A stretch of DNA of 64,000 nucleotides from Roseibacillus sp. (lineage in GTDB: Bacteria > Verrucomicrobiota > Verrucomicrobiia > Verrucomicrobiales > Akkermansiaceae). The translations under genes and the position numbers were made by a program. A model generated the notes under the pieces. It made no database searches and was not told where the DNA came from. It saw only the letters and a list, made by a program, of their open reading frames with translations. The stretch spans positions 576,001 to 640,000 of the forward strand of contig JBPOGI010000001.1 in NCBI GenBank assembly GCA_051251855.1. The letters are read 5' to 3'. Shown here in pieces: positions 15,365 through 63,788 of the stretch; positions within the stretch are counted from its first letter, which is position 1; each line of letters opens with the position of its first letter.

Positions 15365-15377
15365 GGGCTACTCGGCT

Positions 15378-17669: not shown

Positions 17670-17729
17670 GCACGGAGAAGAGTGAAGTTGAAAGAGCGCT
17701 CTGCAAGTTGAAAATTGGCGACTTCTTTC

Positions 17730-17745
17730 TCCCTCAGATGAGGGG
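17730..17745. promoter_or_regulatory. Palindromic box, copy 3 (between the divergent CRTAC1 and kinase genes)
   Basis: tccctcagatgagggg. Confidence 0.7.
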
Positions 17746-17832
17746 GGATAGAGTCGCGAGGAGGCGCTAAAGTATGTAACCCGGTAAATCAAACTCCGAG
17801 GTGCGTTCGTTTTTCAATGGACTTTTGAACGT

Positions 17833-32287: not shown

Positions 32288-32480
32288 CTTAAGAAAATGG
32301 TGAAATGAGAAAGAGCGTTTAGGAAAAGTGTCATCGTGAGACTGAGATTCATGAGGGAAAACCAAGAGAGCTTGGAACTTTTTGCAAAGATTGTGGCACG
32401 GGGAAGGCTCTAAATTGGAGGTGGGAGGAATAGTTCCGTTGCTCTAACGGTGGTTCTCCTCCTATCCTTACAGCCGCATC

Positions 32481-44871: not shown

Positions 44872-44925
44872 TTTAAACAAGTGATTAAAACAATCGTTTG
44901 ACGGTGGCTTTTTTCGGGGTATTGT
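44872..44925 (+). promoter_or_regulatory. Tandem TetR (PsrA-like) operators overlapping a sigma70 promoter
   Basis: TTTAAACAAGTGATTAAA and AAAACAATCGTTTGA; TTGACG-N16-TATTGT. Confidence 0.7.
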
Positions 44926-44930
44926 CGGCC

Positions 44931-45566: not shown

Positions 45567-45595
45567 TGATAGCCGAGAGTGGAGGTGGCATCGCC

Positions 45596-47014: not shown

Positions 47015-47032
47015 AGAAGGAGACGGCACAGT

Positions 47033-48298
47033 ATGAATGATGATAAATTAGAGACGATGACCTTCGAGGAACTCGAGAAAGACCGAGGTCTTGCCTTGCG
47101 TGCAGTGATGAGCTTCGTCGCTGTGTTGGTGATTCTAGGGCTAATGTCTGCGGCGATTTGGATTCTGATTATGAGCAAGCCGACGGCGGCCAAGAAGGTG
47201 GAGACTGCGGCGATGGCTCGCACCGTTCAAGTGGCGACAGTTGAGAAGGCTAAGGGGGAGGTAGAGATTCGCGCCGAAGGGGTGGTCGAGAGTCAAAGGG
47301 TGGTGAACCTAACCGCTGAAGTCACAGGGAAACTCATTGAGGTGAGTTCGAATTTGGTTCCTGGAGGGAAAGTTCGTCAGGATGAGATCTTGGTCACCAT
47401 CGACCCTGCTGATTATCGGGCAGCCCTAGAGCAGGCCAAAGCGGCCCAAGAGCGAACGCGCATGACGGTGGCTGATGCAGAGTTGGCGATCGAGCAAGAG
47501 GAGGCCCGACGTGAGCAGGCGCTCCGTGATTGGAAGAAATTAGGGAAGGGGAACCCGAGTGATCTCCTAGCCCGCAAACCTCAGTTGGCAAGTGCGCAAG
47601 CTCGGTTGGCAAGCGCCAAGGCTGATGTCGAGAGTTCGGCGGCAGAGGTGGAGCGGGCGAGTCGTAATTTGACGCGGACTGTGATTCGAGCCCCTTTCGA
47701 CGCGGTTGTTCGGCAGGAGTCGGTTGAAGTGGGAGCTGTTTTGGCGCCGGGGACGATGTTAGCGACTCTATTTTCGGAAAGCAGTCTGGAGGTCGAACTC
47801 CCTCTGAAGCTCGAAGATTATGCTCTCTTAAGCCGTGATGAAAACGGGGCCGTGCAAGGCGACGTAAAGCTGGTGGGAACCCTTGGTGTGCGGGAAGTGA
47901 TTTGGCCGGGTCGAATTGTGAGAACAACGGGCGAAGTGGAGCGAGGAGCTCTTACTGCGAGTGTGGTGGTTGCCATTGAGGGCGCTGAGGGGGAGGGGGA
48001 ATTACGGTTACCTCCTCCGGGACTGTTCGTTCGGGCCGAGTTACAGGGGCAAACTTTGGATGACGCTTTGGTTATTCCGCGTGAGGCGGTGCGTGAGGGG
48101 AATCGCCTAGCGGTGGCTACTGAAGAGGGGACGCTTGATTTTCGGATTTTGACGGTGGTGCGCTCGAACGCCACCAAGGTGTTTGTCAGTGAAGGTGTCG
48201 AGGTTGGAGAGCGGGTCGTATTGACAAGGGTGACGGGGGCGATTCAGGGGATGGAAGTTGAAGTCGAGGAATCTGTCCAAGGAGAGGAAGGCGAGTAA
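47033..48298 (+). CDS. RND periplasmic adaptor (membrane fusion protein)
   Basis: AEVTGKL, IDPADY, coiled hairpin, IRAPFDA. Confidence 0.92.
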   Translation: MNDDKLETMTFEELEKDRGLALRAVMSFVAVLVILGLMSAAIWILIMSKPTAAKKVETAAMARTVQVATVEKAKGEVEIRAEGVVESQRVVNLTAEVTGKLIEVSSNLVPGGKVRQDEILVTIDPADYRAALEQAKAAQERTRMTVADAELAIEQEEARREQALRDWKKLGKGNPSDLLARKPQLASAQARLASAKADVESSAAEVERASRNLTRTVIRAPFDAVVRQESVEVGAVLAPGTMLATLFSESSLEVELPLKLEDYALLSRDENGAVQGDVKLVGTLGVREVIWPGRIVRTTGEVERGALTASVVVAIEGAEGEGELRLPPPGLFVRAELQGQTLDDALVIPREAVREGNRLAVATEEGTLDFRILTVVRSNATKVFVSEGVEVGERVVLTRVTGAIQGMEVEVEESVQGEEGE

Positions 48299-51200
48299 TG
48301 GAAGGTGTTGTTCGTTGGTTCACTCGTAATCATGTTGCAGGCAATTTTCTAATGCTGGCTATCTTGCTAGCGGGCTTTACGACTTGGTTCAAAGTCCGAA
48401 AGGAAATTTTTCCGGACACGGCGTTCGACGCTCTAACAGTTTCGATTCCTTATCCCAATGCCACTCCCGAGGAGGTAGAGCGTGGGGTGGTGGTGCCGGT
48501 TGAGGAAGCGGTGGCTGATGTGTTAGGCATTAAGAAGATGCGTTCGAGCTCGTCGCAGAATGGCGGCGGAGTGACGATTGAGGTTGAGAATGGTTATGAG
48601 GTTCGCGATGTCATGGATGATGTCAAAACGCGGGTCGATGCCATTGCTAACTTTCCTGAGGAGGCGGAGAAGCCTGTCCTGGAAGAGATTGTGATTACCT
48701 CACCGGTGATGGCGATTACGCTGGTTGCGGACGGGGCCGATGAAACGACTTTGGTCAAGCTGGCGGAAGAAATTAAGGACGAGTTGCTTTCTTTCGAGCC
48801 TCAGAAGAAGCCAACCTTCATGGAGTTCGTGGGGAACGCTTTGGCCGGAAAACCGAAGATTACCAAAGTATCGATCGCTGGAACCCGTCCTTATGAAATT
48901 TCGATTGAAGTCAGTGAGGAGCGGTTGAGGGAACTGGGATTGACCCTCGGTGAAGTTGCCGATTCTGTGCGGCGCTTCTCGGTCGACTTGCCAGCAGGAT
49001 CGATTCGCAGTGAGGGAGGCGAACTGATCGTGCGAACGGTTGGTAAGAAGTTCCACGCCGTTGATTTTGCAGGCGCTCCCATTAAGACTCTTTCCGATGG
49101 TTCGGTTGTTCGCTTGAGCCAAGTCGCGAAGCTAATCGATGGCTTTGAGGATGTGGACTTGAGCGTGACCTACGACAGTGAGGAAGCTGTGGTGGTCAAT
49201 GTCTATCGAGTGGGAGACCAAGATACCACGCGCTTGGCCAAGATGGTGGAAGAGTATGTAGAATGGAAGAATGGGCAATCTTTGAACGGAGTGACTCTCG
49301 GGATTTGGAATGATCAGAGTGAACTGCTCAAAGGACGTATTGATTTGTTAGCTCGTAACGCGTCTTTTGGGCTTCTGTTTGTTTTGATTGTGCTGGCGCT
49401 GTTTCTGCGTCCTTCTCTGGCGTTCCTAGTTGCCTTGGGGATTCCGGTTTCTTTCGCTGGAGGAATGTGGTTGATGCCAATGCTGGGGATCTCGATCAAT
49501 ATGATTTCTCTTTTCGCCTTCATTCTCGTTCTGGGAATTGTGGTCGATGATGCCATTGTTACGGGCGAAAATGTCTACGCGCGTATTCAAAAGGGGGAGC
49601 ATCCCACCTTGGCTGCTTGGAAAGGGACGCACGAGGTTGGAACAGTTGTTATTTTCGGAGTCCTCACGACGGTGGTTGCGTTTACGCCGATGCTCGGGTT
49701 GAGCGGGGTGAGCGGCAAGATTTGGCCAAACATTCCGTTGGTAGTCATTCCGACGTTGCTGTTCTCATTGGTGCAGTCGAAGTTGGTTCTGCCTGCTCAT
49801 TTGGCTTTATTGGGGCCAACGAAGTCGGACGAGGAGCGAAGCCACTCGCGGTGGAGGGCGTTTCATCCATTGAACCCGGTGAAGTGGGTTGTGTTTTTGG
49901 TAGAAGGACTTTTTTGGATTCAGCATCAGATCGCTTCGGGTCTTCTCCTCTTTGTTAAGAATATCTATCAGCCTGCGTTGAACTTTGGACTGCGTTGGAG
50001 GTATCCCATGATCGCCCTCTTTTTTGCAATCTTTGCCTTCAGTCTCGCGGTGGTGGGGACAGGGCGGATTAAGTTTCAGTTCTTTCCCGAGGTGGAGGGA
50101 GATATTTTGAGTGCGAAGTTGGAGTTGGCTCAAGGGGTGCCCTTTTACCAGACGGAAGAAGTAGTGGCTCGGATTGCGGAGGCTGCCTCTCAGATGGGTG
50201 AACAGTATCAGGGATACGAGGGTGAACCGGTTGTGCGGCATGTGCTTGCGAGTAGCGGGACTCAGCCTTTTATTACAGGGTTTCAGCCCGGTGGCCCACC
50301 AAAAGCAACGCACATTGGAGAGGTCACGATTGAGCTTTTACCCTCAGCGAAGCGCGCTGTAGGGAGTGACGAATTAGTCAGTAAATGGCGCGAGTTGACG
50401 GGGGATATTCCAGGAGTGGTTGAGCTCTCTTTTAAGGCGGAGACTGCCTCGGGCGGGAATGCGATTGATCTAAGTTTGACGGGATCGAACCTCGAAGAAT
50501 TGGAGGCAGCGACGGCTTTTGCTAAGGAGCGGTTGGGTGACTACGAGGGTGTGATTGATATTGCCGACAGTAGTCGGGCTGGGAAGGACGAGATTCAAAT
50601 CGTTCGCCTCACTCGCGCGGGGGAGACTTTGGGATTTACTCTGGGGGACGTGGGGGGGCAGGTCCGAGATGCCTTTTTCGGGAACGAAGTGCAACGACTG
50701 CAGCGAGGGCGAGATGAGGTAAAGGTTATGGTTCGACTACCAGCCGCAGACCGGCGCACGACAGAGACGATCGAGAAGTTGGAACTTACCAGCCCCTCCG
50801 GTGAGCGAGTGGCGTTACGGGATGTCGCGGTCTATCAGTTTGGAAGCGGTCCGGCGGTAATTAATCGTACTGATCGTCAAAGGTCAGTGAAGGTGACGGC
50901 CGATGTGGATGAAAGCACCAACGCTAACGAAGTGGTTGGGCTATACACGAAGGAGGCGCTTAGTGAGATGTCCAGCAGGTTTCCTAGTGTGCAGTGGGGT
51001 TTTGAGGGAGAGCAAGAGGACCAAGCCAACTCTGTTCGGGAAATCGGGATCGGCTTTTTGGGGGCGATTATTATCATGTATGTTCTGATTGCGATTCCTC
51101 TTAGAAGTTACTTTCAGCCGATTATTATTTTGAGTGTGATTCCGTTTGGGCTCATCGGAGGGATTTGGGGGCATGCTGCTCTCGGGATGAATTTGTCCAT

Positions 51201-51570
51201 CATGTCAATGGTAGGTTTTGTAGCGTTGGCTGGGGTTGTTGTGAATGATTCGTTGGTAATGGTGGACTTTGTGAATCGTCACCGAGATGAGTTGGGGTCC
51301 GCTCGGGAAGCGGCCTTGCAGGCGGGAGGACGGCGCTTTCGAGCTATTCTTTTGACCTCGTTGACAACGTTTGTCGGCCTTTTACCTATGCTGGCAGAGC
51401 AAGATATGCAGGCGAAATTTTTGATTCCAATGGCGGTTTCTTTGGGGTTTGGAATCATCTTTGCGACGACGATCACTCTCTTCTTGGTTCCGGGAGTTTA
51501 TGTCGTCATGGATGATGTCCAGAGGGTGCTTTTGCGCATCGCTCGCGGTTTCCGCAAGACGAAGGTATGA
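48298..51570 (+). CDS. RND efflux permease (AcrB-like)
   Basis: GIVVDDAIV..EN, VVNDSLV, RFRAILLTSLTT..GLLPM; TAATG coupling with the adaptor gene. Confidence 0.95.
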   Translation: MEGVVRWFTRNHVAGNFLMLAILLAGFTTWFKVRKEIFPDTAFDALTVSIPYPNATPEEVERGVVVPVEEAVADVLGIKKMRSSSSQNGGGVTIEVENGYEVRDVMDDVKTRVDAIANFPEEAEKPVLEEIVITSPVMAITLVADGADETTLVKLAEEIKDELLSFEPQKKPTFMEFVGNALAGKPKITKVSIAGTRPYEISIEVSEERLRELGLTLGEVADSVRRFSVDLPAGSIRSEGGELIVRTVGKKFHAVDFAGAPIKTLSDGSVVRLSQVAKLIDGFEDVDLSVTYDSEEAVVVNVYRVGDQDTTRLAKMVEEYVEWKNGQSLNGVTLGIWNDQSELLKGRIDLLARNASFGLLFVLIVLALFLRPSLAFLVALGIPVSFAGGMWLMPMLGISINMISLFAFILVLGIVVDDAIVTGENVYARIQKGEHPTLAAWKGTHEVGTVVIFGVLTTVVAFTPMLGLSGVSGKIWPNIPLVVIPTLLFSLVQSKLVLPAHLALLGPTKSDEERSHSRWRAFHPLNPVKWVVFLVEGLFWIQHQIASGLLLFVKNIYQPALNFGLRWRYPMIALFFAIFAFSLAVVGTGRIKFQFFPEVEGDILSAKLELAQGVPFYQTEEVVARIAEAASQMGEQYQGYEGEPVVRHVLASSGTQPFITGFQPGGPPKATHIGEVTIELLPSAKRAVGSDELVSKWRELTGDIPGVVELSFKAETASGGNAIDLSLTGSNLEELEAATAFAKERLGDYEGVIDIADSSRAGKDEIQIVRLTRAGETLGFTLGDVGGQVRDAFFGNEVQRLQRGRDEVKVMVRLPAADRRTTETIEKLELTSPSGERVALRDVAVYQFGSGPAVINRTDRQRSVKVTADVDESTNANEVVGLYTKEALSEMSSRFPSVQWGFEGEQEDQANSVREIGIGFLGAIIIMYVLIAIPLRSYFQPIIILSVIPFGLIGGIWGHAALGMNLSIMSMVGFVALAGVVVNDSLVMVDFVNRHRDELGSAREAALQAGGRRFRAILLTSLTTFVGLLPMLAEQDMQAKFLIPMAVSLGFGIIFATTITLFLVPGVYVVMDDVQRVLLRIARGFRKTKV

Positions 51571-52313: not shown

Positions 52314-52339
52314 AGAATTCCCCGTTGGGGAACGGATTT

Positions 52340-55300
52340 TTACTGGCTGCTGTCTTCCTCAACAAGAACGCGGAGATATCCTCGCTCATGGTCCGACTCT
52401 GAGAGACGGAAGGTGAGGTAGTGATATCCGTTAGGTGCTACGGGGACGTTGCTTGGATTAGGAATGAAGGTGACGCCCTGATCCCAATCTTCGAGGTCGG
52501 AGGAGCCTTGGAAGGTGTAGATGAGGCCAGCTGCCCGATAGCTATTGCGCCCGAGGGTTCCACCGACTGCGACGGGAACGGTCTGGCAGCAATTGCCTTC
52601 ATGGTCGAAACCGAGAAGAAGTTGTGGGCGGCTTGAGGATGAGCCTTGATTTGAGCCGAAGGCAAATTCAAGGAGGTTGCTCGTGTTATCGCCATCGCTG
52701 TCCATCATTGCCGCGGCTTGTTGCCCGGTTTCGCTGAGCGTTGTGAAGGTCAGGTTGGACGCGGGTGCGGTTTCAATGAATTCGAACCAGTTCACATTAA
52801 CGGCATCGCCGATCATCTCGAGGCGAAGTACCCTTTCTCCAGAGGTGGCAATAGCTAGGTTCGGGAGAGTGAAGGTGACCCAATTTCCCCAACCGCCGGT
52901 GGACTGAACGTCAATCGTGCCAAGAACTTCACCGTCGAGGGTGACTCGGACGTCGCCCACGATGGACTCGTTACTGGAAGCGCGTAGGTTGAGCTGATAG
53001 ACGCCTGGTGTGGTGTTGAGGGTGTATTCCATCCATTGAGCATCATCAAACCAGCCTACATTAAATCCACCGTCAGTGTCACCAGAGGGCTCGATATCGA
53101 CGGCATCACCGCGATAGGAACCGCCAAAGTTCTCGGGGTCGGCATCGGAGTAGGCAACGCCTTCGCCGCCGAGGTCGTAGTCCTCAGCCTGAACGCGGCC
53201 GGGGACGGCATGGGCGGTGCCGCCGAAGGGCGACTGTCCCGTTGGAGGGGGAGGAGCGACGGATCCGTCGTCGAATTCAACCCAGTTCAGGTTGAAGCCT
53301 GCGGCTCCCGCGAATCTCAGTCGAAGGATGTGGCTGCCGGTCTCTGTGATGGTCACTTGGGGAATGGTAAGAGTCTCCCAGTTATACCAATCGCCGGTGC
53401 CATTGACGGAGAAGACACCGAGTGAACGACCGTCAAGTTCGACAGCCAGTTGACCAGGGAAGGTAAAGCCACTCGCGATACGTGCGTTGAGGTCGTAGGT
53501 GCCTGGGGTCACATTGACCGTGTATTCGAGCCATTCGCCGGGGTCGGTCCAACCGATGGAGGGAGTGGCGTTGGTGTCGAAGGAGGCCTCGATATCGACT
53601 CCGCTGGTGCGGTAGTTGAGGTCGGTATAGGTGAGACCGAAGTTCTCTTCCTCCGAGTCAAGGTAGGCTTCTCCTGGGCCGTCTTCGTCGAAGTTTTCGG
53701 CTTCAATTTTACCAGGGATATTGGCTGCCACTCCGCCGAATGGGGTTTGGTTGCCGGTCGGAGGCGGAGGAGTGACGGAAGGGTCACGGAGTTCGAGCCA
53801 GTTGAGGTTAAAGGATGATCCTTGATATTCGAGACGCAGGACGGCGTCACCACTAGGTACGGTGATGCTGGGGAGAGTGAAGTCTTCCCAGAGATACCAA
53901 CCTCCGGTGGAGTCGATATCGATTTCGCCGATAGGGCTGCCGTCTAACAGAACACGTATGGTTCCGGGGATAGCGAGTTCGCTGGCAGCGCGAGCCACAA
54001 TATCGTAGGTGCCAGCGGTGAGGGTAACGGAGTATTGAGTCCATTCACTGTCTTCGAGCCAGCCGATGGCAGGGGTGTCGTCGGTGTCGTTAGAGGCTTC
54101 GAGGTCGACGCCTTCGTCACGGAAGTTGGGACCAAAGTTAGCACCGAAGTTCTCGGGGTCGAGGTCACTGTAGGAGATGCCGGGACCACCAGTATCGTAG
54201 TTTTCGACTTGGAGCCGGCCGGGAAGTGCTGTCGGGGTTCCTCCGAAGGCAAGTGAGGCATCGGGAACTTCGTCTGGTTTACCTTCGAGCTGATTGATGA
54301 AGGATACCAGATAGTTGCGTTCCGTGGTGGTGACCGAAACGCCGTCATGGGCATCGATGGCGGCGGCGAGGTCGGGCGCGGAACCGTCATGGAGATAAGG
54401 GGCACCCGCGAATGCAGTGAGGAGAGAAGGGGTGTCGAGGCCGGGGAGGTTGCCGCCGAGACGTTGACCCGAAGCGGAAGTCAGAGTGCCGATATCGTGG
54501 AAGGAACTTCCGGAGTCCGTGAAGGCGCTTCCGCTATGACAGTCGACGCAGCCCTTCGAGGTGAAGAGGTCGCGGCCCGCGAGGCCGGCTGCGGTGAGCT
54601 CTCCGGCATTTGTGCGGTGCGGGGAGACCGGTTTCTCAGTCAGGCTTCCCAAGTAGGCTGCGAGGGCATCAAGGTCGGCACTGCGCCCGCCGTTAGGAGT
54701 GCCGAGTGGTGCATGGGGAGTGCCGTTCGCAATGAGTCCTGATCCTCCCGAGAAGTTGCGGATTTGGCCTTCGAAGTCTTGAACCTCATCAAAGTTGGCG
54801 GACCAGTGGAAGGGGCCGTGCTCTTCGCCGCCTCGGCCGTGAAGCTCGATGGTGTTGCGGAGTCCTTCTCCAACGCCGGTGAAGTCCCAAGTACGGCCGT
54901 CGTGTCCGGCGTCGTTGTGGCAAGAGGCGCAGGACATGTAGTTCTCCAAACTGAGTCTGTCGTCAAAAGAGTCGTAGAAGAGTTGTTTGCCGAGAAGGAT
55001 TTGAGCTGGCAGAGCTTCTGCAGCCGTCGCATCTAAGGTGGCGACGGTAGAAGAAGTTTCGGTTCCGTTCTCTACAAGGGCCGCAATATCGTGAAGGGTC
55101 ACGGATCGGCTCATGAAGTTGTGAACGAGGAGTGTGTGGCCGTCAGCAGAAAGAGCGAGGCCTTGGGGTGCTCGCTCCACGTTGATGCGGAAGAGCTCTT
55201 GTTCTCCGTAGACGTCGACGACGGAGACTTCGCGGGATCCTTCCAGTGCGACGAAGAGGTGTAGCCCGTAAGGTCCATAGATTGCTGCTGAGGGTAGTCC

Positions 55301-58300
55301 GGAGTTGTCAAAGTCGATTCGGCTTAGGTAATCCTCATTGTTTGTAGAGAGGTTCAGGCGCGACGTGACGGAGCGGACTGTATTCTGGTGGTCGAGTTGG
55401 CGTCCGTCGCGAAGCATTCCGCGTTCGATGTTGTCGAGCTTGGAGGGAATCCAGGCGGAGTCATTGGCGGGGGAAATGGCAGGGGCACCCAAATAGTTGG
55501 GGAGTCCACGGCCGCCGCCAGCGAAGTCACTTTCGGTGGAGGCTTGCAAGCGAGTCGTGGTGAGAGAACTTGGGTTGGCTGGGTCCATGATGCCGATGTA
55601 ACCGCCAGCGTTAGTGAGGTTAGGGTTCGCCGTAGACTCGCCGGGAGCGGGTGGGGAGATAAAGCGGGGTAGGTAGAGTTGGCTTCCGTTGTGGTTGATG
55701 GCGAGGTGGCGGGGACCTTCGCCCGCATCGTGACGACCGAGATTGCCACCAGTCGTGGGATTCAGCTGGGCGACGAGGCCGTCTGCTTCCAAGGCAACCC
55801 AAGCGCTGCTTCCATCAGGGCTATGCACGACTCCGTGAGGTTGGGAACCTCGGGGGAAGACGCGGGTCACTAAGCTGTAGTTGTTCGGGTTGATGATGGA
55901 GAGGGTTGCGGAGTTCTTGTTGGTGACCCAAACCCGTCCATCGGGGGCGAGGCTGAGGGTGCGAGGGGAGTCGCCTACCGCGACCTCGGTAATTTTGTTG
56001 CCGGTCACGAGGTTGAAGACGCTCACGGTGTCTTGGTCTGGATTAACGCTCCAGACTTGCTCGTTGGTGCCATTGCCCACAGTGATGACGGGTTGACTAT
56101 TGCGAGGACGGTTGGCGGTGAGTGCAGGGTGAACGAGATGAGTGATGCGCCTCGTGACTGAAGTGCCATTGTTGTCAGTCGCTGTCAGGGTCACTGTATA
56201 GCGACCAGGATTGGCGAAGGTATGGTTGGCCGCTGGGCTGGTGGAAGTGACTTCGGCGGTGCCATCACCAAAGTTCCAATTATAGCTCACGCCTGTTCCT
56301 CCCGTGGCTGCCACGGAGAAGTTGGTGGATGAACCCGACTGGCTTGGAGTGGTGAGAGTCTCGGGGAGGGTAATGGCCGCGCGAATGATCCAGCGGAAGG
56401 TGCGCGAGGCCTGTTCACCAGCAGGGTCGGAAACGGTGACGATAGGGTTGTAGGTCTGCGGACTGGTAGGGCTTCCTGTCATGCGGCCGCTGGTCGCATT
56501 CATGGTTAATCCTGGCGGTAAACCTGTGGCGCTATAGGTGAGAGTGTCTCCGTCGGCGTCCGAGCCGAAGGCTCGAATGTTGATAGCCGTTCCGACAGTG
56601 TGAATACGGTTGGCTAGGATGGCTAAGGTAGGAGCTTGGTTGTCATCAGGAATGAAGGTCACGCGAACTGACTCCAGTTCGAAGTGAGCAGACTCGCTGA
56701 GACCGTTCTTTTTCGAGAGGTAGGCGCCGAGGCGCAGGGTATGATTGCCGGCGGGAAGGATGGCTGAAGAGACAGTGGAAGTGAGGTCGCCCGAGTCGCC
56801 GCCACCGGTGTTTTGATAGAGGTAGCTATTGCCGTTTGTTCCGAGTAGCTGTCCGCCAATAGAGACAAGGGCTTGGCTGTTTTCATCGCTATCGAGAGTA
56901 AGATCCGCATCGAGTCTCCACTGGGGGCTGACGACAATGGTGCCCGGCTGGCTTAATGAGATCGTTCTTTGCCAAGCTCCCGACATCCCAGTGCGGCCAG
57001 AGGTGTCGACTCCTCCCAATTCGACATGAAGGCGACCATCACGAACGGGTGAACCCGAGCGACCTGCTTGGAAGTTGGTCGCGATATCGGCATTGGTCAG
57101 GCGTTTGCTGTAGACCGCAAGAAGATCGTAGTCGCCCAGCCAAGCGCGATCACCCGCCAGTTCGTTGGCGAGGGCAAATTGATAGGAAGGATCCCAGTTG
57201 GTGAAGTCGCCGGGAACGGTGGCAGATTTGATGAGGGAGCCGTTGAGGTAGATACGACCCACTCCGTCTGAGATGGTGTAGACGACGTGCTGGTAAGCGA
57301 TGGCTGCAGGGTTGGTGGTCGTTTCAACTCCAGGAAGTCCGTTGGTGGAGGTTTGCGGAGTGCGGACCCGTCCGTGGTAGTTGAGGGCTTCCTGTCCAAG
57401 GGTGAAGTTGCGCAGACTGGTTGTGCTCGAGAGTGTCGCAATGCGGGCAGGTCCTGCTTGGGTGAGATTTTGAGGACGGATCCAGGCCTCGATGGACATG
57501 GCATTGCTCGTGGTGATGGAGTTGTAGAGCTTACTTGCTGCTCCCGCGCTGCGGATGAGGGTGCTGCCGTTGACGCTGAGAGTTCCATCGCCATTCCAAG
57601 CGGTTTGAGCGGGTGTGGTGATGGTGAGGTTAAGCGGAGTGCCATTGCCAGCCACGTCGTAGACGATGTTAGAGTTTGCCCCTTGGTCAAAGGTATAGAG
57701 AGCCTGAAGAGTGCTGCCGGCGACTCGGCTCTGAATAGCGTTAACACCACTGGCGTAATTAGGGTTGTTGGTGCCACGGAAGGCGTCATCGACGTAGCTA
57801 AAGCCACCGTCGTCACTTTCAAAATCTTCTTCGAAAAGGAGACTGCCATCGATGGTCCATGGCTGTGTGCTAGAGACCTGTTGGCTATCGCTATCAGTGA
57901 CAGTGATGGTCACGTTGGTAGTCCCAGTTGCGGTCGGCTGGCCGGTGATGGCTCCAGTAGAGGAGTTGAGTGAAAGTCCCGCAGGGAGGTTGCTTGCCGA
58001 AAAGGAATAAGGGGGCACCCCTCCGCGAGCGGAAACGCCGTGATTGAGACTGGTATTGAGGAAGGCGTTGAGGGGCGCCTGATGGGTGAGAGAAAGTTCT
58101 CCGACTTTGATGCGCAGATAAAGACCGTTGCGATTGTTGAGGTTAGAGGACCAGACCCACTTGGCATCCGAGTCGACGGGGAATCCGGAGATGGTATTCC
58201 AAGGGGAGCTGCCGAGACCGCCGTGTTCGGTGGCGGAAGACCAAGAGGAGTCATTGAAGTTGGGTTGTTCCCAGCCTGAGGGAGCGGTGTGCGACACTTT

Positions 58301-60535
58301 CCAATCTGAGGAGGTTGTGACGAGCTCACCATTGACTCGAAGTTGCCCGAGTAAACCTGTGGCGCCTACGACGTCGGTCACGTGGATGGCAATGGTCGAA
58401 CTTTGGCTGCCTGAGAACGAGGTGGTCGTTGCGTTGTTAGAGTTGAGACCGATCTGAGTCAGTTGACCATCGACGTAGAGTTCGTGGCGGTTTTGGGAAG
58501 CGATAGTGGCCTCGTTGAGAGGCTCGATGGCGCGCAGCACGCGGGAGGGAACGATGGCCTTGGGAGTGCGAGGGCTGGACCACTTCAGCTGAATGATCGA
58601 GGCAGCAGTACCTTGAAAGTAGTCGAGGCGAATGGGGACGGGGACTCCTGCTTGGAGGCTGATGGTCGCCGAGTTCTCGGTGGATCCGTGGTTGGTCCAG
58701 TTATTGATGATGAGCTGGTCATCAATCCAGAGCCGGACGCCGTCATCTGATTGGGTGTGGAAGGTGTAGGTTTCGCTATACTCAGGAATGATCCAACCGG
58801 TCCAGCGAACGGAGTAGGTGTCGTTGCCGACGAGGTCAGGGAGGGGTGAGTTGGAGGTCGAGGTGTAGTCGATGAGGGCATCGGTACGAGTTTCCTTCAA
58901 AGTGTTGAAGCCGGTGCCATCGTAGTATCGAGCCAAAAGGCCGCTGGTGTCGGCGTCAGAGGTCTCCTTGACGTGAATGATTTTGGCTTCGGAGTAGGAG
59001 CCGTTGGCGCGGGTGCCGAACAGCATCCAGTAACCAGGAACCATGACATCCTTGTTAGGGTGAGAGATGAGTTGGTATTTTCCGCTGGAGGTCTCGGTGA
59101 AGGGAATGTCGAGAAAGCGTTGGTCTGAGGTGACGCCATGGGTGATGGCAATCATACGAATCATGGAGAATCGACGGAGGTTTGCGGAGGCATCAACTTC
59201 AAAGACCGAGCCTAATGAAACTGCATCTGGTGCGGTCGTAATAACGGGACGCGCAATAGGTTCGTTGCTGGCATTGAGAAGAGCGGGGGGAGTGAGAATT
59301 TGTGCATCAGGGTGGGTAGCGGGATGATTGGCATTGCCGACACCGGAGAGAAAGCCACCACCACCAGAAAAGACGCGACCGTCGGGCAAGAGTGCCGCGG
59401 TGGAGTGGTAGTTGCGAGGGATGGCCATGCTAGCAAGAGTGCGCCAAGTTCCGGTGGTGGGGTTCCAGACCTCGGCAGGGAGAATAGAGCCTGTATCAGA
59501 GAAGCGTTGACCGGTGGTGTTTCCTCCGATGGCAACGACTTCGCCTGAGGGCAATGCGACAATGTTGTGAAGACTGCGAGCAAAGGCCATGGAAGAAGTT
59601 GTCTCAACCGTGGGCGGAGTAGTGTTGAGATCAACGGTGTAGCAAAGCTTGCTGGCGGCATTCGAGGCGGCAACGGCAGCGCCACCGACGATGAGATACT
59701 TGCCGGAGCCATACATGACGATGCCGCCGTCGTGGGGATAATGGTTTCCTGGGACGGTGACTCCTGCGGAGATGCGTGAGCCGTTGCCACTGGCATCGAC
59801 CCAATGCATGGCATCCGTGGGGCCAAAGTGAAAGAGGCGTCCATCGGGAGCGACCATGAGGAAGGGCCAGCCTTCACTCTCGAATCCGGCCGCGCCTGAT
59901 ACCGGCTGCCAGTTGATACCGTTGAGCAAATTCCATTGGTTGCTATCACGGTCGAAGCGTTCAGCTTCGTTCGGGCTTCCTCGGCCTCCAAAGGTGGCGA
60001 CGTCTCCATCGGGGAGCGCTACCGCGGTGGTATACCAGCGCGGACCATTCATATCAGAGACGCGATTCCACGAATTGGAGCGCCAGTCATAGATGGAGGA
60101 GTGTTCGATGGTGAAGCGGCCGCCTACTGTTTGGAGGAGACCGTCGGTACGCATCACGGGGTGGGCGCAGAACATTTCGTGACCTTGATAGAGATCGTTC
60201 GCGAATTGGGAGGTCTCGGGATTCCAAAGCGACCAGTGAGTTCGGTGAGCCGTTCCGGGCCAACTGAGAAGCTCTTGTCCAGAGTAGGTGAGGAGCTTGC
60301 CGTTGGGAAGGACCGCCAAAGAAACCGGAACATGCGGCCAGTCGATGACGGGTCCCCAAGAACCTGCGCGCGTGGAAATGGTGGGAGCCGCTGGAGTGGC
60401 GGTGTAGTTGGGCAATAGGGAGGCCGCCTGCTGCCAAAACGCATCGTCTTCGGCGTGGACGTTGGCATCAGCGAGTGAGCTCGTGAGGGAGCTGAACCAA
60501 GTGATGAGGAGGATGAACAGGGTGGAACGTTTCAT
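52340..60535 (-). CDS. 2731-aa secreted multidomain protein: AA5/galactose-oxidase-like copper radical oxidase + DUF1929, PA14, lectin-like, Ig (He_PIG), LamG, PKD, YVTN propeller, di-heme peroxidase-family domain, 3x CBM6-like, C-terminal SxDLxxW module
   Basis: HEMFC (C123), RWY (Y168), RNYHS (Y376/H377), ITHG..DQR (H466); CASCH and CVDCH with APYLHDG; three PGR/KxxxExxD...GW...EW..Y repeats. Confidence 0.88.
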   Translation of the reverse strand: MKRSTLFILLITWFSSLTSSLADANVHAEDDAFWQQAASLLPNYTATPAAPTISTRAGSWGPVIDWPHVPVSLAVLPNGKLLTYSGQELLSWPGTAHRTHWSLWNPETSQFANDLYQGHEMFCAHPVMRTDGLLQTVGGRFTIEHSSIYDWRSNSWNRVSDMNGPRWYTTAVALPDGDVATFGGRGSPNEAERFDRDSNQWNLLNGINWQPVSGAAGFESEGWPFLMVAPDGRLFHFGPTDAMHWVDASGNGSRISAGVTVPGNHYPHDGGIVMYGSGKYLIVGGAAVAASNAASKLCYTVDLNTTPPTVETTSSMAFARSLHNIVALPSGEVVAIGGNTTGQRFSDTGSILPAEVWNPTTGTWRTLASMAIPRNYHSTAALLPDGRVFSGGGGFLSGVGNANHPATHPDAQILTPPALLNASNEPIARPVITTAPDAVSLGSVFEVDASANLRRFSMIRMIAITHGVTSDQRFLDIPFTETSSGKYQLISHPNKDVMVPGYWMLFGTRANGSYSEAKIIHVKETSDADTSGLLARYYDGTGFNTLKETRTDALIDYTSTSNSPLPDLVGNDTYSVRWTGWIIPEYSETYTFHTQSDDGVRLWIDDQLIINNWTNHGSTENSATISLQAGVPVPIRLDYFQGTAASIIQLKWSSPRTPKAIVPSRVLRAIEPLNEATIASQNRHELYVDGQLTQIGLNSNNATTTSFSGSQSSTIAIHVTDVVGATGLLGQLRVNGELVTTSSDWKVSHTAPSGWEQPNFNDSSWSSATEHGGLGSSPWNTISGFPVDSDAKWVWSSNLNNRNGLYLRIKVGELSLTHQAPLNAFLNTSLNHGVSARGGVPPYSFSASNLPAGLSLNSSTGAITGQPTATGTTNVTITVTDSDSQQVSSTQPWTIDGSLLFEEDFESDDGGFSYVDDAFRGTNNPNYASGVNAIQSRVAGSTLQALYTFDQGANSNIVYDVAGNGTPLNLTITTPAQTAWNGDGTLSVNGSTLIRSAGAASKLYNSITTSNAMSIEAWIRPQNLTQAGPARIATLSSTTSLRNFTLGQEALNYHGRVRTPQTSTNGLPGVETTTNPAAIAYQHVVYTISDGVGRIYLNGSLIKSATVPGDFTNWDPSYQFALANELAGDRAWLGDYDLLAVYSKRLTNADIATNFQAGRSGSPVRDGRLHVELGGVDTSGRTGMSGAWQRTISLSQPGTIVVSPQWRLDADLTLDSDENSQALVSIGGQLLGTNGNSYLYQNTGGGDSGDLTSTVSSAILPAGNHTLRLGAYLSKKNGLSESAHFELESVRVTFIPDDNQAPTLAILANRIHTVGTAINIRAFGSDADGDTLTYSATGLPPGLTMNATSGRMTGSPTSPQTYNPIVTVSDPAGEQASRTFRWIIRAAITLPETLTTPSQSGSSTNFSVAATGGTGVSYNWNFGDGTAEVTSTSPAANHTFANPGRYTVTLTATDNNGTSVTRRITHLVHPALTANRPRNSQPVITVGNGTNEQVWSVNPDQDTVSVFNLVTGNKITEVAVGDSPRTLSLAPDGRVWVTNKNSATLSIINPNNYSLVTRVFPRGSQPHGVVHSPDGSSAWVALEADGLVAQLNPTTGGNLGRHDAGEGPRHLAINHNGSQLYLPRFISPPAPGESTANPNLTNAGGYIGIMDPANPSSLTTTRLQASTESDFAGGGRGLPNYLGAPAISPANDSAWIPSKLDNIERGMLRDGRQLDHQNTVRSVTSRLNLSTNNEDYLSRIDFDNSGLPSAAIYGPYGLHLFVALEGSREVSVVDVYGEQELFRINVERAPQGLALSADGHTLLVHNFMSRSVTLHDIAALVENGTETSSTVATLDATAAEALPAQILLGKQLFYDSFDDRLSLENYMSCASCHNDAGHDGRTWDFTGVGEGLRNTIELHGRGGEEHGPFHWSANFDEVQDFEGQIRNFSGGSGLIANGTPHAPLGTPNGGRSADLDALAAYLGSLTEKPVSPHRTNAGELTAAGLAGRDLFTSKGCVDCHSGSAFTDSGSSFHDIGTLTSASGQRLGGNLPGLDTPSLLTAFAGAPYLHDGSAPDLAAAIDAHDGVSVTTTERNYLVSFINQLEGKPDEVPDASLAFGGTPTALPGRLQVENYDTGGPGISYSDLDPENFGANFGPNFRDEGVDLEASNDTDDTPAIGWLEDSEWTQYSVTLTAGTYDIVARAASELAIPGTIRVLLDGSPIGEIDIDSTGGWYLWEDFTLPSITVPSGDAVLRLEYQGSSFNLNWLELRDPSVTPPPPTGNQTPFGGVAANIPGKIEAENFDEDGPGEAYLDSEEENFGLTYTDLNYRTSGVDIEASFDTNATPSIGWTDPGEWLEYTVNVTPGTYDLNARIASGFTFPGQLAVELDGRSLGVFSVNGTGDWYNWETLTIPQVTITETGSHILRLRFAGAAGFNLNWVEFDDGSVAPPPPTGQSPFGGTAHAVPGRVQAEDYDLGGEGVAYSDADPENFGGSYRGDAVDIEPSGDTDGGFNVGWFDDAQWMEYTLNTTPGVYQLNLRASSNESIVGDVRVTLDGEVLGTIDVQSTGGWGNWVTFTLPNLAIATSGERVLRLEMIGDAVNVNWFEFIETAPASNLTFTTLSETGQQAAAMMDSDGDNTSNLLEFAFGSNQGSSSSRPQLLLGFDHEGNCCQTVPVAVGGTLGRNSYRAAGLIYTFQGSSDLEDWDQGVTFIPNPSNVPVAPNGYHYLTFRLSESDHERGYLRVLVEEDSSQ

Positions 60536-62241
60536 GGTGAGTTGGGGAATTTGTGGTCAGTGAGGGTATTGAGAAAAGCGAGGAGATCGGCCTTGTCTTC
60601 GTCGTCGAGGTCAAGTCCGGTCTGGGGGTGCTTTGCGAGGTTGGGGTCGAGGGTGGGAGAGCGTTTGATGCCGGAGTTATAGTGCTCAATGACTTCTTCC
60701 AGAGTCTTAAAACGGCCGTCGTGCATGTAGGGCGCAGTGAGGGTGAGGTTGCGTAAGGAAGGCACTTTGAGCTTGCCGCGATCGTTAGGGTCTCCAGTGA
60801 CCAGTTCGCGGCCTAGGTCCTTGAAAGTGTTCGAAAGGCCGTTGTTGTGGAATCCATGATTGGTAAAGAGAGAGCCACCGTGGCAGTGGAAGCAATCCGC
60901 TCCTTTGAGGCCGTTTGCAGGGTCATGCTCGGTCACGAAGAGTTCGAAGCCGCGCTTTTCTTGTTCGGTGAATTCGACCTCGCCTCGCATCGCTTGGTCG
61001 AAACGGGCTTCCTGCGAAACCAAGGAAAGGAGGTATTGCTCGAGAGCTTTGGCGAGGTGATCCGAGGAGGCTTCCGCGATTCTAAAAACAGTTTCGAATT
61101 GTTGTTGGTAGTGACTATCGCTGTTGATGCGAGTCAGGGCTTCCTCGAGAGGAAGAGCCAGTTCGTCAGGATGCTCGATGGGGTGGAGGACTTGTTCCCG
61201 TAGAGTGGTCGCGCGGCCGTCCCAGAACATTTCTTTGTGCCAAGCGAGATTGAAAAGAGGCATTGAGTTACGAGAGCTCTTTCCACCGAGATGTCCGACG
61301 GAAAAGGCTTTGCCGGTATCAGAGAAGGCGGCTTCTGGTTGATGGCAACTGGCGCAAGAGAGGTTACGATCGTGAGAGAGGGTGGTGTCAAAAAAGAGCT
61401 TCTTGCCCAGGGCGATTCCTTCGGCTGTGAGGGGGTTATCAGCAGGGAAAGCTGGCTTGGGAAAGTGGCTTTGAATCAACGGCTGACCCGAGGAGGCTGA
61501 AGGCGACTCTAGGTCTGCGCCCGTGGTGGGAGGGTGGAAGACACCAGAGTGAATTTTCTCTACGGAGAAGCTTTTGGCTAAAGCTTCGGACATCAGTTTG
61601 GCGACGGGATCTCCGGTACGGGAATGAGTGGAAGTGGTCGCCCGAATATCAAGGTTTGAGCCTCCTAAGAGAGGGGAGAGGTCGAAGCGGAGAGAAATCG
61701 TGCGTGCACTTTGCGCAGACAGCGAGAGAGGGAGGGTGATGGTGGTGGCGTTCTCGTCATTGCCCAAATGATAGAGGAAGCCAAGGTCGCTCTCGCTGTG
61801 ACCTTCGACGGCGCAGAAAATGTAGCCGGTTTGCCAAGTCCAGTGCAGATTGTTGAGTTGGGGATTGAGAGGATGATCGGCTGGGTAACGATTAGGGTCG
61901 GAATGATTACTCTCTGAATCCAAGCCGACCACGAAGCGAATCGCACGATAATCGCCGGTTGGAATTTGACCTAAGGAGAAGTGGGTTCGGTTGTTCGAGT
62001 GAGAGATGAAGGCAACGAGACTGGCGTTGGCTTCCATCCAAGAACCGTCTTTGCGCTGGAGGGCAAATTGAGAGAGAAGGGAGTCGCAGCGAGTGACCTT
62101 GATTCCGTCCACTTCCTCTCCGAGTTGGTAAGAGCGGCCCGAAAGCTCCAGTTCGAAGGTAAGATCACAACGTGTCGTCTGAGCCTGAGCGGGCAGCAGA
62201 AACAGGAGTGGGAACAAAAAATGATGAGCGATCTTCCTCAT
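60532..62241 (-). CDS. MbnP-like copper-binding domain fused to an MbnH/MauG-type di-heme cytochrome c peroxidase
   Basis: N-terminal GDYRAIRF.VGLD..NH.DP...HWTWQTGY.F...EG; C-terminal LGKKLFFD..LS...SCASCH, FWDGR, CFHCH, KVPSLRN...APYMHDGRF.TLEEVIEHY. Confidence 0.85.
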   Translation of the reverse strand: MRKIAHHFLFPLLFLLPAQAQTTRCDLTFELELSGRSYQLGEEVDGIKVTRCDSLLSQFALQRKDGSWMEANASLVAFISHSNNRTHFSLGQIPTGDYRAIRFVVGLDSESNHSDPNRYPADHPLNPQLNNLHWTWQTGYIFCAVEGHSESDLGFLYHLGNDENATTITLPLSLSAQSARTISLRFDLSPLLGGSNLDIRATTSTHSRTGDPVAKLMSEALAKSFSVEKIHSGVFHPPTTGADLESPSASSGQPLIQSHFPKPAFPADNPLTAEGIALGKKLFFDTTLSHDRNLSCASCHQPEAAFSDTGKAFSVGHLGGKSSRNSMPLFNLAWHKEMFWDGRATTLREQVLHPIEHPDELALPLEEALTRINSDSHYQQQFETVFRIAEASSDHLAKALEQYLLSLVSQEARFDQAMRGEVEFTEQEKRGFELFVTEHDPANGLKGADCFHCHGGSLFTNHGFHNNGLSNTFKDLGRELVTGDPNDRGKLKVPSLRNLTLTAPYMHDGRFKTLEEVIEHYNSGIKRSPTLDPNLAKHPQTGLDLDDEDKADLLAFLNTLTDHKFPNSP

Positions 62242-62531
62242 GGGGTGGAAACGAGCGCGCAGACTACTATTTTTTATAAATACGATAAAATATTTTATGA
62301 AAGTTGTTTAATGGGGATGTGGCTTTATATTCTTGCAGTAATCTTATTTTAAGTGGTTTAAGTGGTATTTCGTGTCTGTTTAGTAAGGGTGTTTTCCTGC
62401 TGGTTCCGCAATTTTTTAGTTAGGTTTTATGTAATACCTTGTTTGTTTGATTTTTTGAAGAAGAGAGGTAGATGGCTTTAGGGTGACAGTTCTCTTGGCT
62501 GAAGGAGGGTGCTTTGGCTAGGGTTGCCTTA

Positions 62532-63788
62532 GTGAAAGCTTTAGCCCTGTTCCCAATTCTCTTCTTTTGGTTGTTGAGTGTCCCTCTTTTTGCTGAGCCG
62601 ACGGAGGAACGTGAATGGACCTCGAAAGCAGGAACGAAGTTGGTGGCCTCGGCGCTCGAAATTGATGGCTCGGAAGTGGTTCTGCAACGGGGAACGGGCG
62701 CAACTCTGCGAGTCAAACTGAACCAACTCGTGGCCGAAGATCAGGAGGTTTTGAAAAAGCACTTCTCGGAAGGAGATTCTGAGATTGCGAACGGGAAGAT
62801 GGAGGGCTTGCCTCATCCGCAGGGGGAGGTCGTGGGGCCGATTCAGGCGGAAGGAGGGAAGTATTTTCTCTATGTTCCCAAGAATTTGGTGAAGGAGCGA
62901 TTGGCTCCGTTGTTATTTTTTACGGGCGCAGGAGGTGGGTCTGCGGGGAGCGTTAAGCGTTTCACCGAAGGGGCAGAAGTGAATGGTTGGATCGTAGCGG
63001 CTTCAGTGGAGTCGAAAAATGGCAAAGACGGTCGCCCGTTTGTGAAGGCTTGCTTAGAGCATATTCAAGCCACCCTTCCAGTCGACCCCGAGCGGTTGTA
63101 TTTCACGGGGACTTCGGGTGGCGCAGTGTTCTCGATGATCAACTGCGAGACCTACGATGGAGCAGGGGCGATGCCCTTTATCGCGCATGGGGTGATCAAT
63201 ACTTTGCCTTCGAAGAAGGGCCACTACTACTTTGTGAACGGCGCTACCGACTATAACCGCTATGGGTCTTCCTGGATGCGCACGGGTTACAAGGATCATG
63301 CCTTTCATCGCTTCCATAAGGGCGCTCATGGCGCGGGACCTTTTTATCTGGGGCATGATGGGATGGCTTGGCTCAATGGTCAGTATCTTGCAGAGAAGGA
63401 ATCGGACCGGGAATTTGCGCAAGAGCGTCTCGACTACGAAAGAGCCATCTTGGCATGGGCTGGTCGCTTGCAGGCGGACGCGCCTCATAGAGCGCTTATG
63501 CATTTAGATTTTCTGACCGAAGAGTATGAGGTCTCAAGAGAGAATGCTGGCAAGGTCGATGAGTTGAAGCGTGAGCTCTCGGAGAACCCGAACAATGTTC
63601 GTTACGTCGAGGCTCTTAAAGCGATTGACGAGTTCTCGCAGGACGAATTTTCTGGAAAAGGCGGGAGTTCTCTCCACAAGCACACGAGCGACGATATCAA
63701 AAAAGCAGCGTCCAAATTGGAAGCCGAGTATCAGGGAGTTCCCGAGGTGCCCGAGATTCTGAAGAATCTTCCGAAGCCTTCGATTTAG
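62532..63788 (+). CDS. Secreted SHD1-domain protein with an alpha/beta-hydrolase-like domain
   Basis: REWTSKAG...LNQLVAEDQEVL (SHD1); YFLYVP, VDPERLYFTGTSGGA (GxSxG). Confidence 0.75.
   Translation: MKALALFPILFFWLLSVPLFAEPTEEREWTSKAGTKLVASALEIDGSEVVLQRGTGATLRVKLNQLVAEDQEVLKKHFSEGDSEIANGKMEGLPHPQGEVVGPIQAEGGKYFLYVPKNLVKERLAPLLFFTGAGGGSAGSVKRFTEGAEVNGWIVAASVESKNGKDGRPFVKACLEHIQATLPVDPERLYFTGTSGGAVFSMINCETYDGAGAMPFIAHGVINTLPSKKGHYYFVNGATDYNRYGSSWMRTGYKDHAFHRFHKGAHGAGPFYLGHDGMAWLNGQYLAEKESDREFAQERLDYERAILAWAGRLQADAPHRALMHLDFLTEEYEVSRENAGKVDELKRELSENPNNVRYVEALKAIDEFSQDEFSGKGGSSLHKHTSDDIKKAASKLEAEYQGVPEVPEILKNLPKPSI

Follow-up and report, generated by a model that had tools for sequence, protein, structure and literature searches.

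Why should one exported bacterial protein carry both a copper radical oxidase and a c-type di-haem domain, and which of the two serves the other? The question is raised by a gene in a 64,000-nucleotide stretch of Roseibacillus sp. DNA (GenBank assembly GCA_051251855.1, contig JBPOGI010000001.1, positions 576,001 to 640,000 of the forward strand), referred to here as the window. A sequence-only reading had placed a producer and a putative consumer of H2O2 on the single 2731-aa polypeptide that this gene encodes. We compared the protein with its homologues and found that the pairing recurs in eight phyla, that the haem half is closest to hydrazine synthase's beta and gamma subunits, and that this half is more conserved than the oxidase. 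Tentatively, and at somewhat less than even probability, we propose that the oxidase feeds peroxide to a haem enzyme with a substrate of its own, the whole forming a secreted, glycan-tethered two-enzyme machine.

One reading frame joins the two enzymes

The frame at 52340..60535 of the window, on the minus strand, is one uninterrupted open reading frame of 2731 aa with zero internal stops (protein P0001). Pfam found, in order, AA5 elements (a glyoxal oxidase N-terminal region just below cut-off, Kelch and E-set), PA14, He_PIG, LamG, He_PIG, PKD, propeller matches, CCP_MauG and three CBM6 modules, and NCBIfam detected the YVTN repeats. The PA14, LamG, YVTN and CBM6 assignments of the sequence-only reading were thereby borne out. 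The features of the frame are as follows.

60464..60535, minus strand: signal-peptide-like N-terminus (residues 1-24), judged by eye from the sequence
58967..60373, minus strand: AA5 copper radical oxidase (55-523), with C123, W167, Y168, Y376, H377 and H466; G186 at the Trp290 site and E219 at the site of the galactose-binding Arg
58550..58945, minus strand: PA14 (531-662; Pfam, E 3e-27)
58100..58522, minus strand: lectin-like module (672-812), with no Pfam family and with Atlas look-alikes
57845..58093, minus strand: first Ig-like He_PIG domain, approximate bounds (Pfam, two He_PIG stretches)
56651..57838, minus strand: LamG/concanavalin-like domain (1003-1152) with unassigned flanks (900-1295; Pfam)
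56132..56641, minus strand: second He_PIG domain and PKD (1299-1468; Pfam)
55031..56104, minus strand: seven-bladed YVTN propeller (1478-1835), hydrazine-synthase-beta-like, with conserved E1633, N1680, Y1681, K1699, D1701, R1709 and R1721
54272..55024, minus strand: di-haem c domain (1838-2088), hydrazine-synthase-gamma-like, with CASCH 1869, inter-haem W1911, CVDCH 1996 and the probable second axial ligand His2063
52775..54247, minus strand: three CBM6-like modules (2097-2587; Pfam CBM_6, E 2.6e-48, 3 stretches)
52343..52738, minus strand: C-terminal DxDxDG..N..E module, no Pfam match
52317..52333, minus strand: terminator-like hairpin just 3' of the stop, between convergent genes (6 overlapping matches versus 0.4 in shuffles)

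Both haem motifs stand where the earlier reading had put them, and the distance from H466 to C1869 (1403 aa) fits its estimate that the haem module lies about 1400 aa downstream of the oxidase. The lectin-like module at 672-812 matches no Pfam family; among its Atlas look-alikes (0.95-0.97) is a cluster with the automatic name 'Lectin family protein', in keeping with the label it had been given. The C-terminal DxDxDG..N..E pattern terminates 33 long frames of the Roseibacillus genome and is presumably an export or anchoring tag. The closest named relative is a 2729-aa protein of Roseibacillus persicicus, with 76% identity in the haem module and 85% in the AA5 module. No other AA5 module and no other propeller-di-haem module were found in the genome that encodes P0001.

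The pairing is a family trait

A search with the propeller-di-haem region, in which 8000 candidates of 1502-4780 aa were scored, returned 2296 proteins at E 1e-20 or better. AA5 was present in 117 of the 120 matches listed, and the other three start mid-protein. Without the length limit, we obtained 1402 clusters (50% identity) at E 1e-30 or better. Among the best 150 of these, 121 carry AA5, N-terminal every time; because these fractions rest on the top-ranked matches, they describe the near clade and not the whole superfamily. AA5 was found in all 117 representatives with at least 560 residues before the haem module, and most of the 29 representatives without it are N-terminal fragments, whereas a few others look whole (P0224, P0233, P0236). 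Spacers between the two enzymes measure 86-1520 aa. Clusters in which the propeller-di-haem unit stands alone, at about 600 aa, are common.

At the genome level, 578 of 601 pattern matches in GTDB were confirmed and the best 80 were retained as loci. The two modules are fused in 73 (two with apparent frameshifts), six are cut by the start of the contig, and one has AA5 in pieces upstream. We rule out chance fusion and misassembly, since 121 of 150 cluster representatives share this domain order and so do 73 of the 80 genome loci. By the labels that we assigned from record titles and protein names, the fusion occurs in eight phyla: Verrucomicrobiota, Pseudomonadota, Myxococcota, Acidobacteriota, Chloroflexota, Deinococcota, Planctomycetota and Nitrospirota. 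A phylum-wide search recovered it in 11 of 301 genomes, a rough prevalence, as at most eight candidates were scored per genome.

One alternative explanation of the fusion is co-display, in which two independent enzymes would have their export signal and binding modules in common but exchange neither peroxide nor electrons. Each module is also found alone, the proteins of these phyla are highly mosaic, and the trees of the two modules agree weakly. However, AA5 followed by haem persists in every representative with room for it while the accessory modules turn over, and the pair is kept across the eight phyla, even where one type of oxidase has replaced another (see below). We regard co-display as improbable. 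A conserved functional link between oxidase and haem module is supported by the family-wide fusion and by the adjacent copper-loading genes described below.

All the modules come from known superfamilies, and couples of oxidase and peroxidase have been described as separate proteins; the pairing seen here on a single chain is apparently unstudied. In publication listings and the opening parts of abstracts (most subscription journals and all supplements being outside scope), we found no published description of the fusion, of its hydrazine-synthase-like partner, or of the alternation of SCO and MbnP-MbnH genes reported below.

The oxidase is probably active and is unlikely to use galactose

AA5_2 enzymes are the best solved relatives of the oxidase module, with 9G8H first. 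C123 (in MFC), Y168, Y376 and H377 (in RNYH/RTYH) and H466 (in TH) each paired with its counterpart in the motifs of galactose oxidase 9G8H (E 3e-76), and the same five aligned likewise with aryl-alcohol oxidase 6RYV/6RYW (E 2e-59). The catalytic set named by the sequence-only reading is thus complete, comprising the Cys-Tyr cofactor pair and the Tyr, His, His copper ligands of AA5. It is kept in 114-117 of 117 homologues, the remainder being gaps in fragments. A match to PF09118 (59.5 bits), Kelch models and the full-length alignment to 9G8H predict the seven-bladed Kelch propeller and C-terminal E-set of the family.

The surroundings of the copper site are less conventional. G186 aligns with the Trp of GGSW in 9G8H and with the Tyr/Phe site that distinguishes 6RYV from 6RYW (the Trp290/Tyr334 site). 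Glu219 occupies the position of the Arg of the galactose oxidase FRSDNH motif, which we take to be the galactose-binding residue. A galactose 6-oxidase would have a stacking aromatic and this Arg at the two sites. Because the Arg is replaced by Glu219, and because that position is variable across the family, galactose is an unlikely substrate.

W167 stands immediately before the cross-link residue Tyr168, and a Trp is found there in 115 of 117 homologues and 94 of 108 fusions. A Trp directly preceding the cross-link Tyr is the second shell of aldehyde and glyoxal oxidases: FgrAldOx builds it with consecutive W509-Y510, and W288 of GlxA occupies the same place (PMC13094651; here and below, PMC numbers refer to excerpts of the papers). 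Since W167-Y168 mirrors this arrangement, the pair probably supplies the stacking Trp, offsets the loss of Trp290 and leaves the radical shielded. The sequence-only reading had argued from Gly at the Trp290 position to a different substrate. The Gly is indeed there, but the argument was incomplete, and it is through Glu219 that a substrate other than galactose is likely. In overall sequence the module falls outside AA5_1/GlxA (135 of 800 bits with the GlxA model; 35.7 bits with PF07250, cut-off 37.5). Stand-alone bacterial AA5 relatives are mostly RGY or RAY with the Arg retained (90 and 81 of 119), and the closest short RWY matches are largely partial records. The protein is probably an active, exported copper radical oxidase with carbohydrate-binding modules, as had been proposed.

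Putative copper-loading genes lie beside the fusion

The stop codon of the gene directly upstream, on which the sequence-only reading was silent, overlaps the start of the 2731-aa gene (ATGA).

60532..62241, minus strand: MbnP fused to an MbnH/MauG-type di-haem protein, 569 aa, with WxW W134-T-W136, Gln-Pro-Glu at 350-360 and a Tyr ligand (EHY) at 519

Pfam recognizes both halves (MbnP, E 1.5e-33; CCP_MauG, E 5.5e-53), and the NCBIfam matches lie below cut-off (TIGR04039, 230 of 363 bits; TIGR04052, 45 of 140 bits). The WxW of MbnP and the Tyr ligand and triad of MbnH are all present, and we consider this gene a putative copper-loading partner. MbnH makes a kynurenine copper site in MbnP, and the biological role of MbnP proteins is described as open (PMC11951088).

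Clustering of flanking frames at the 80 loci yielded two dominant neighbours: SCO1/SenC with CxxxC in 32 and MbnP-MbnH in 15, never both. All four of the SCO1/SenC neighbours tested scored above the Pfam cut-off. Where enough flank was available on both sides, 38 of 54 loci have one or the other. The split tracks taxonomy, with MbnP-MbnH mainly in Verrucomicrobiota and SCO elsewhere, and hence is no independent test. In 61 related genomes there were 10 strong AA5 matches, all within haem-module frames. Eight of these 10 frames have MbnP-MbnH directly upstream (the Roseibacillus locus and seven others); of the remaining two, one begins at the edge of a contig and the other is without it. MbnP was found in none of the 13 fetched flanks of haem-module loci without AA5 (three of them short contigs), but 21 of the 61 genomes have MbnP although they do not have the fusion. 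This pattern of neighbours supports a copper-loaded, active oxidase. Elsewhere in the same genome (L121, contig C6, 2971-11307), a 1117-aa protein of YHYH-plus-sulfatase type and a 995-aa one without a Pfam match are followed by a second MbnP-MbnH fusion. No AA5 lies beside it, so MbnP-MbnH may serve other exported metal proteins too.

Several loci have further neighbours. A small monohaem cytochrome c gene (one CxxCH), a possible electron partner, lies beside the fusion and SCO in 10 of 80 loci (L063, L067, L080, L086, L096, L109, L112, L113, L117 and L120; the two tested had no Pfam match). In two Woeseiaceae loci (L104, 12365-14005; L105, 6891-8528) a different di-haem gene follows the fusion, that of L104 with a YtkA-like domain. 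Within 10 kb, four loci (L042, L070, L101, L115) have a tandem second copy in the form of either an AA5-haem fusion or a further large protein with AA5. A large neighbour recurs in five (L058, L062, L082, L091, L119); the L091 member, with a glucose/sorbosone dehydrogenase-type domain, PA14 and PKD, is by its domains a second oxidoreductase on a similar scaffold.

These neighbours bear on the possibility that the oxidase has in the haem module its own built-in activator and sink for peroxide, which would re-oxidize the resting Cu(II)-Tyr site to the radical and remove excess H2O2 while acting on no other substrate. Copper radical oxidases need one-electron activation, and in fungi a dedicated adjacent peroxidase provides it (PMC9770985, PMC12951238). 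Maturation of Streptomyces GlxA requires both Sco and the peroxidase DtpA (PMC4736821), and SCO is the commonest neighbour here. The abutting monohaem cytochrome could feed electrons for H2O2 reduction. The comparisons in the next two sections bear on this explanation as well.

The haem module resembles hydrazine synthase beta and gamma

The propeller-di-haem pair was modelled with confidence by AlphaFold2 (pLDDT 85, pTM 0.90), as a seven-bladed propeller and a di-haem domain. A Foldseek search with the two-domain model was swamped by propellers; the di-haem domain was therefore folded separately (pLDDT 70), and the Z differences below are modest. For the propeller, hydrazine synthase beta (5C2V B) came second in Foldseek. 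It reached Z 34.9 (root mean square deviation 1.9 A, 303 residues), level with the 35.1 of 1L0Q, a YVTN protein, and was matched by profile at E 9e-20. For the di-haem domain the top PDB match by profile was hydrazine synthase gamma (E 1.5e-21), narrowly before the peroxidase 3O5C (6e-20). With the pLDDT 70 model, gamma (5C2V C) was again first by fold (Z 13.7, 4.8 A over 209), followed by bacterial cytochrome c peroxidase (bCcP, 11.9), MbnH-like (11.7), MauG (11.3), BthA (9.8) and RoxA (8.4).

Membership of the bCcP/MauG superfamily is clear from an above-cut-off match to PF03150 (38.7 bits), two CxxCH domains and the inter-haem W1911. The second axial ligand sets the module apart. H2063 is His in 119 of 120 sequences and aligned with the Met of bacterial peroxidases (3O5C, 1IQC) and with a His of hydrazine synthase gamma, whose haem II is bis-His (PMC12607021). 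By this alignment haem II here would also be bis-His, and propeller and bis-His di-haem domain together would reproduce the beta-gamma arrangement. A canonical bacterial cytochrome c peroxidase, with a His/Met high-potential haem, is out, and so is the MauG/BthA/MbnH type, in which a His/Tyr haem enables bis-Fe(IV). Exchange of that Tyr for His abolishes the bis-Fe(IV) signal in BthA and MauG, while BthA Y463H (His/His) still reduces H2O2 with an external donor (PMC6405878). MauG-type chemistry is for this reason unlikely in the haem module, and use of peroxide is possible. The module belongs to the superfamily but is no canonical peroxidase, and the consumption of H2O2 that the sequence-only reading proposed for it is putative.

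Invariant polar residues on the propeller loops and the two-domain model suggest a capped pocket. Hydrazine synthase has a Glu-bearing beta loop and a distal Asp168; E1633, in a loop of doubtful equivalence, was rejected as a proven counterpart of that Glu, the profile having left the beta stretch unaligned. Gly1931 was dropped as a replacement of the peroxidase Glu, as the profile alignment gave a different register.

A true hydrazine synthase is rejected. Haem I of that enzyme has a third thioether ligand, Cys165 (PMC12758564), and the only cysteines of the module are those of its two CxxCH motifs. The best matches of both halves would fit retention of a related nitrogen chemistry, acting on NO or hydroxylamine and perhaps joined to the aldehyde from AA5, for example in oxime formation or NO detoxification. 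Besides the missing Cys, no alpha-like gene stood out among the recurrent neighbours of the 80 loci (no alpha profile search was made), and the hydrazine synthase NCBIfam model gave 53 bits against a cut-off of 1250. Beta-gamma homologues, including fused ones, are also prevalent in environmental bacteria outside anammox; the main text of the same report, whose supplements were outside scope, contains no word starting 'oxidase' (PMC12758564). We think nitrogen chemistry very improbable.

The haem module might instead use O2. RoxA, which is secreted, is a di-haem oxygenase of the c-type whose second haem is bis-His, and a RoxA-like oxygenase or electron-fed enzyme could cut or oxygenate a polymer, after which a Trp-Tyr AA5 would oxidize the released aldehydes, reversing the order of events. 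The missing peroxidase triad, an invariant Phe1921 near haem I, a weak, below-cut-off Pfam RoxA-like match at 2038-2061 and the aldehyde-oxidase type of the AA5 shell all suit this scheme. The profile match to RoxA was E 0.11 over 34 positions. Against the scheme, RoxA is the weakest of the di-haem structural matches, and an AA5 of galactose-oxidase type can replace the aldehyde type, a replacement that sits poorly with an invariable hand-off of aldehyde. We consider this order of events unlikely.

The haem module appears to have a job of its own

Across 108 fusions, conservation is higher in the haem module than in AA5 (median identity 51% versus 39%), and the pairwise identities of the two are weakly correlated (Spearman 0.17; the pairs are non-independent). 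The AA5 partner is of the Trp-Tyr type in 94 and of the galactose-oxidase type in 10 (9 RGY, 1 RAY); GGSW is retained in four of the latter, the ones that the pattern caught. Fused AA5 modules do not form a single clade (FastTree, 227 sequences). In approximately unbiased (AU) tests on 34 rows from the relevant part of the tree, a subset chosen after the 108-fusion comparison had been seen, one origin of the haem modules of galactose-type fusions was rejected (AU p 0.007 for the 9 RGY, 0.013 with the RAY row).

Sister haem modules (38-55% identity) without a fused AA5 occur in 10 related genomes, mostly behind LVIVD-type and Big_5 domains. Eight of these genomes have no AA5 match at E 1e-15 and two have partial matches; conversely, a divergent AA5 is present in one genome (G060) that gave no match to the haem module. 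The sister modules share the haem-I motif, and several place the His a few residues later, as hydrazine synthase gamma does. One such family (L028-L039) comprises proteins of 1465-2230 aa with an LVIVD-like N-terminal domain, Big_5, variable binding modules and the propeller-di-haem unit, and no AA5. Considered as a candidate substitute oxidase, the LVIVD-type domain had few columns conserved across 11 sequences and no evident set of catalytic residues, although it may still be one.

These comparisons combined say, as far as sequences can, that there is a conserved job proper to the haem module, for which any H2O2-making AA5 suffices as partner. The occurrence of sister modules in eight genomes without an AA5 match is also a difficulty for the built-in activator, as is the stronger constraint on the haem module than on the enzyme it would supposedly serve. 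By analogy with hydrazine synthase, haem I would be propeller-capped, and the exposed bis-His haem, at the low potential reported there (about -310 mV), would be a poor oxidant of a Tyr radical site. Nor do spacers of 86-1520 aa suggest a fixed docking geometry. Swaps of oxidase would, however, be tolerable for a generic activator, and the E1633 loop marks an oxidase-linked clade. Taken together, activation and peroxide removal as the sole role, the leading rival of the reading that we favour, seem to us possible but doubtful.

A peroxide-fed haem enzyme is the favoured reading

With the haem module conserved and the oxidase type interchangeable, supply of peroxide to a catalytic haem site is favoured. 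In the mechanism that we propose, the upstream MbnP-MbnH protein, or SCO in other phyla, would help load copper into AA5, where the Cys123-Tyr168 cofactor would form under Trp167. By AA5 chemistry the oxidase would then oxidize a small alcohol or aldehyde, probably not galactose, and release H2O2. On reaching haem I of the propeller-capped unit, the H2O2 could generate a compound-I-like oxidant that attacks a substrate held by the conserved propeller loops, with the bis-His haem II as an electron relay or reservoir and not as a MauG-type Fe(IV) partner. PA14, lectin, LamG and CBM6 modules, which vary freely among fusions, would hold the enzyme pair on a polysaccharide or cell surface, and re-oxidation of resting AA5 may be a side benefit. 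The whole would be analogous to the glyoxal oxidase-peroxidase couple of fungi, but bacterial and on a single chain. The obligate-looking pairing of AA5 and haem despite spacers of variable length argues for this mechanism, and AA5_1 enzymes are regarded as H2O2 suppliers for peroxidases (PMC13094651). The sequence-only reading had named self-activation, detoxification and a second oxidation as uses of the peroxide; the comparative data lean to the last without settling the choice.

Several observations weigh against a peroxide-fed enzyme with its own substrate. The distal Gln-x3-Pro-x5-Glu motif of bCcP, MauG and BthA was found in 0 of 70 module sequences, by a motif search that did detect it in the upstream MbnH-type protein. 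This triad is described as important for peroxide binding in those enzymes, and the distal Glu of BthA is required for both the bis-Fe(IV) state and H2O2 reduction (PMC6405878). E1917, D1920 and E1922, nearby carboxylates that are invariant or nearly so, are candidates for its replacement, but the alignments disagree on the distal register. Peroxide reactivity of the module is argued from comparison with related proteins, and the nearest relative of solved structure, hydrazine synthase gamma, with its low-potential bis-His haem, is proposed to reduce NO (PMC12607021). The conserved neighbours of the 80 loci point to no haem substrate. At least one extra oxidase swap is shown and only one is firm, because with P0182 removed a single origin is no longer rejected (AU p 0.22). 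Finally, the proline loop at E1633 is present in 108 of 108 fusions and in 0 of 12 sister modules, which could mean specialization towards the oxidase.

A more specific form of the proposal, which we put forward as a possibility with real doubt, is that the module represents an uncharacterized class of haem oxidant from the hydrazine synthase beta/gamma lineage. Fed by an interchangeable on-board copper oxidase, it would attack an extracellular surface polymer without added peroxide or reductant, and MbnP-MbnH would load copper in the role of SCO.

Surroundings and implications

A divergent 424-aa protein without a Pfam match is encoded at 62514-63788 (plus strand), with a weak depolymerase/esterase-like NCBIfam match (27 bits, cut-off 150). 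Window positions 44898-51570 (plus strand) hold an ordinary RND efflux operon with a regulator-like gene, an outer-membrane factor, an adaptor and AcrB-family genes (AcrB by Pfam, the rest judged from sequence). Other large, probably exported proteins lie at 545-5968 (plus strand), 11995-17792 (minus strand) and 30314-32365 (minus strand); by Pfam these comprise two lamin-tail-domain, one TSP3-repeat, one FG-GAP/ASPIC and one multi-domain cytochrome c protein.

Copper radical oxidases in use as biocatalysts depend on the addition of peroxidase and catalase; a natural fusion of oxidase and haem unit on one chain might do without both. A hydrazine-synthase-like beta-gamma module sitting on an enzyme of known chemistry offers a direct assay for the function of such modules, and the fusion bears on the origin of hydrazine synthase. 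The alternation of MbnP with SCO beside a copper enzyme offers a testable client for MbnP.

Comparison with known systems

With the AA5_2 galactose and aryl-alcohol oxidases (9G8H/9G43, 1GOF, 6RYV), its best matches (E 3e-76 to 1e-55), the oxidase module shares fold elements and the five first-shell residues; it differs in Gly at the Trp290 site, Glu for the galactose-binding Arg, Trp before the cross-link Tyr, and the di-haem fusion. The consecutive Trp-Tyr second shell is that of FgrAldOx (9N3U) and GlxA (4UNM), to which overall similarity is weaker (E 9e-13 and 4e-24; GlxA model 135 bits, cut-off 800). The dependence of GlxA on SCO and on a haem peroxidase (PMC4736821) recalls the SCO neighbours and haem partner of this family, although the haem partner of GlxA is a separate DyP and here it is a fused c-type di-haem module.

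The haem module shares with hydrazine synthase beta and gamma (5C2V B and C) the order of propeller and di-haem domain and the His at the second axial position. It differs, at 18-29% identity, in lacking a third haem Cys, in having no alpha subunit seen nearby, in its non-anammox hosts and in its fusion to a copper oxidase. Bacterial di-haem peroxidases, MauG, BthA and MbnH share the PF03150 superfamily, two CxxCH motifs and the inter-haem Trp; unlike them, the module has His for Met or Tyr on haem II, no Gln-Pro-Glu and a propeller cap. The upstream gene combines, as in the MbnP/MbnH system, a WxW MbnP with an MbnH-type di-haem protein that has the Tyr ligand and full triad. Unlike that system, it is a single fused gene beside a copper oxidase, with no methanobactin genes noted beside it (no search for them was made). 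In the fungal tandem of peroxidase and alcohol oxidase in Colletotrichum and Magnaporthe (PMC9770985), a copper radical oxidase is likewise genetically tied to a haem protein; there the tie is between two genes and involves a class II b-type peroxidase, whereas here it is one chain with an unrelated c-type di-haem module.

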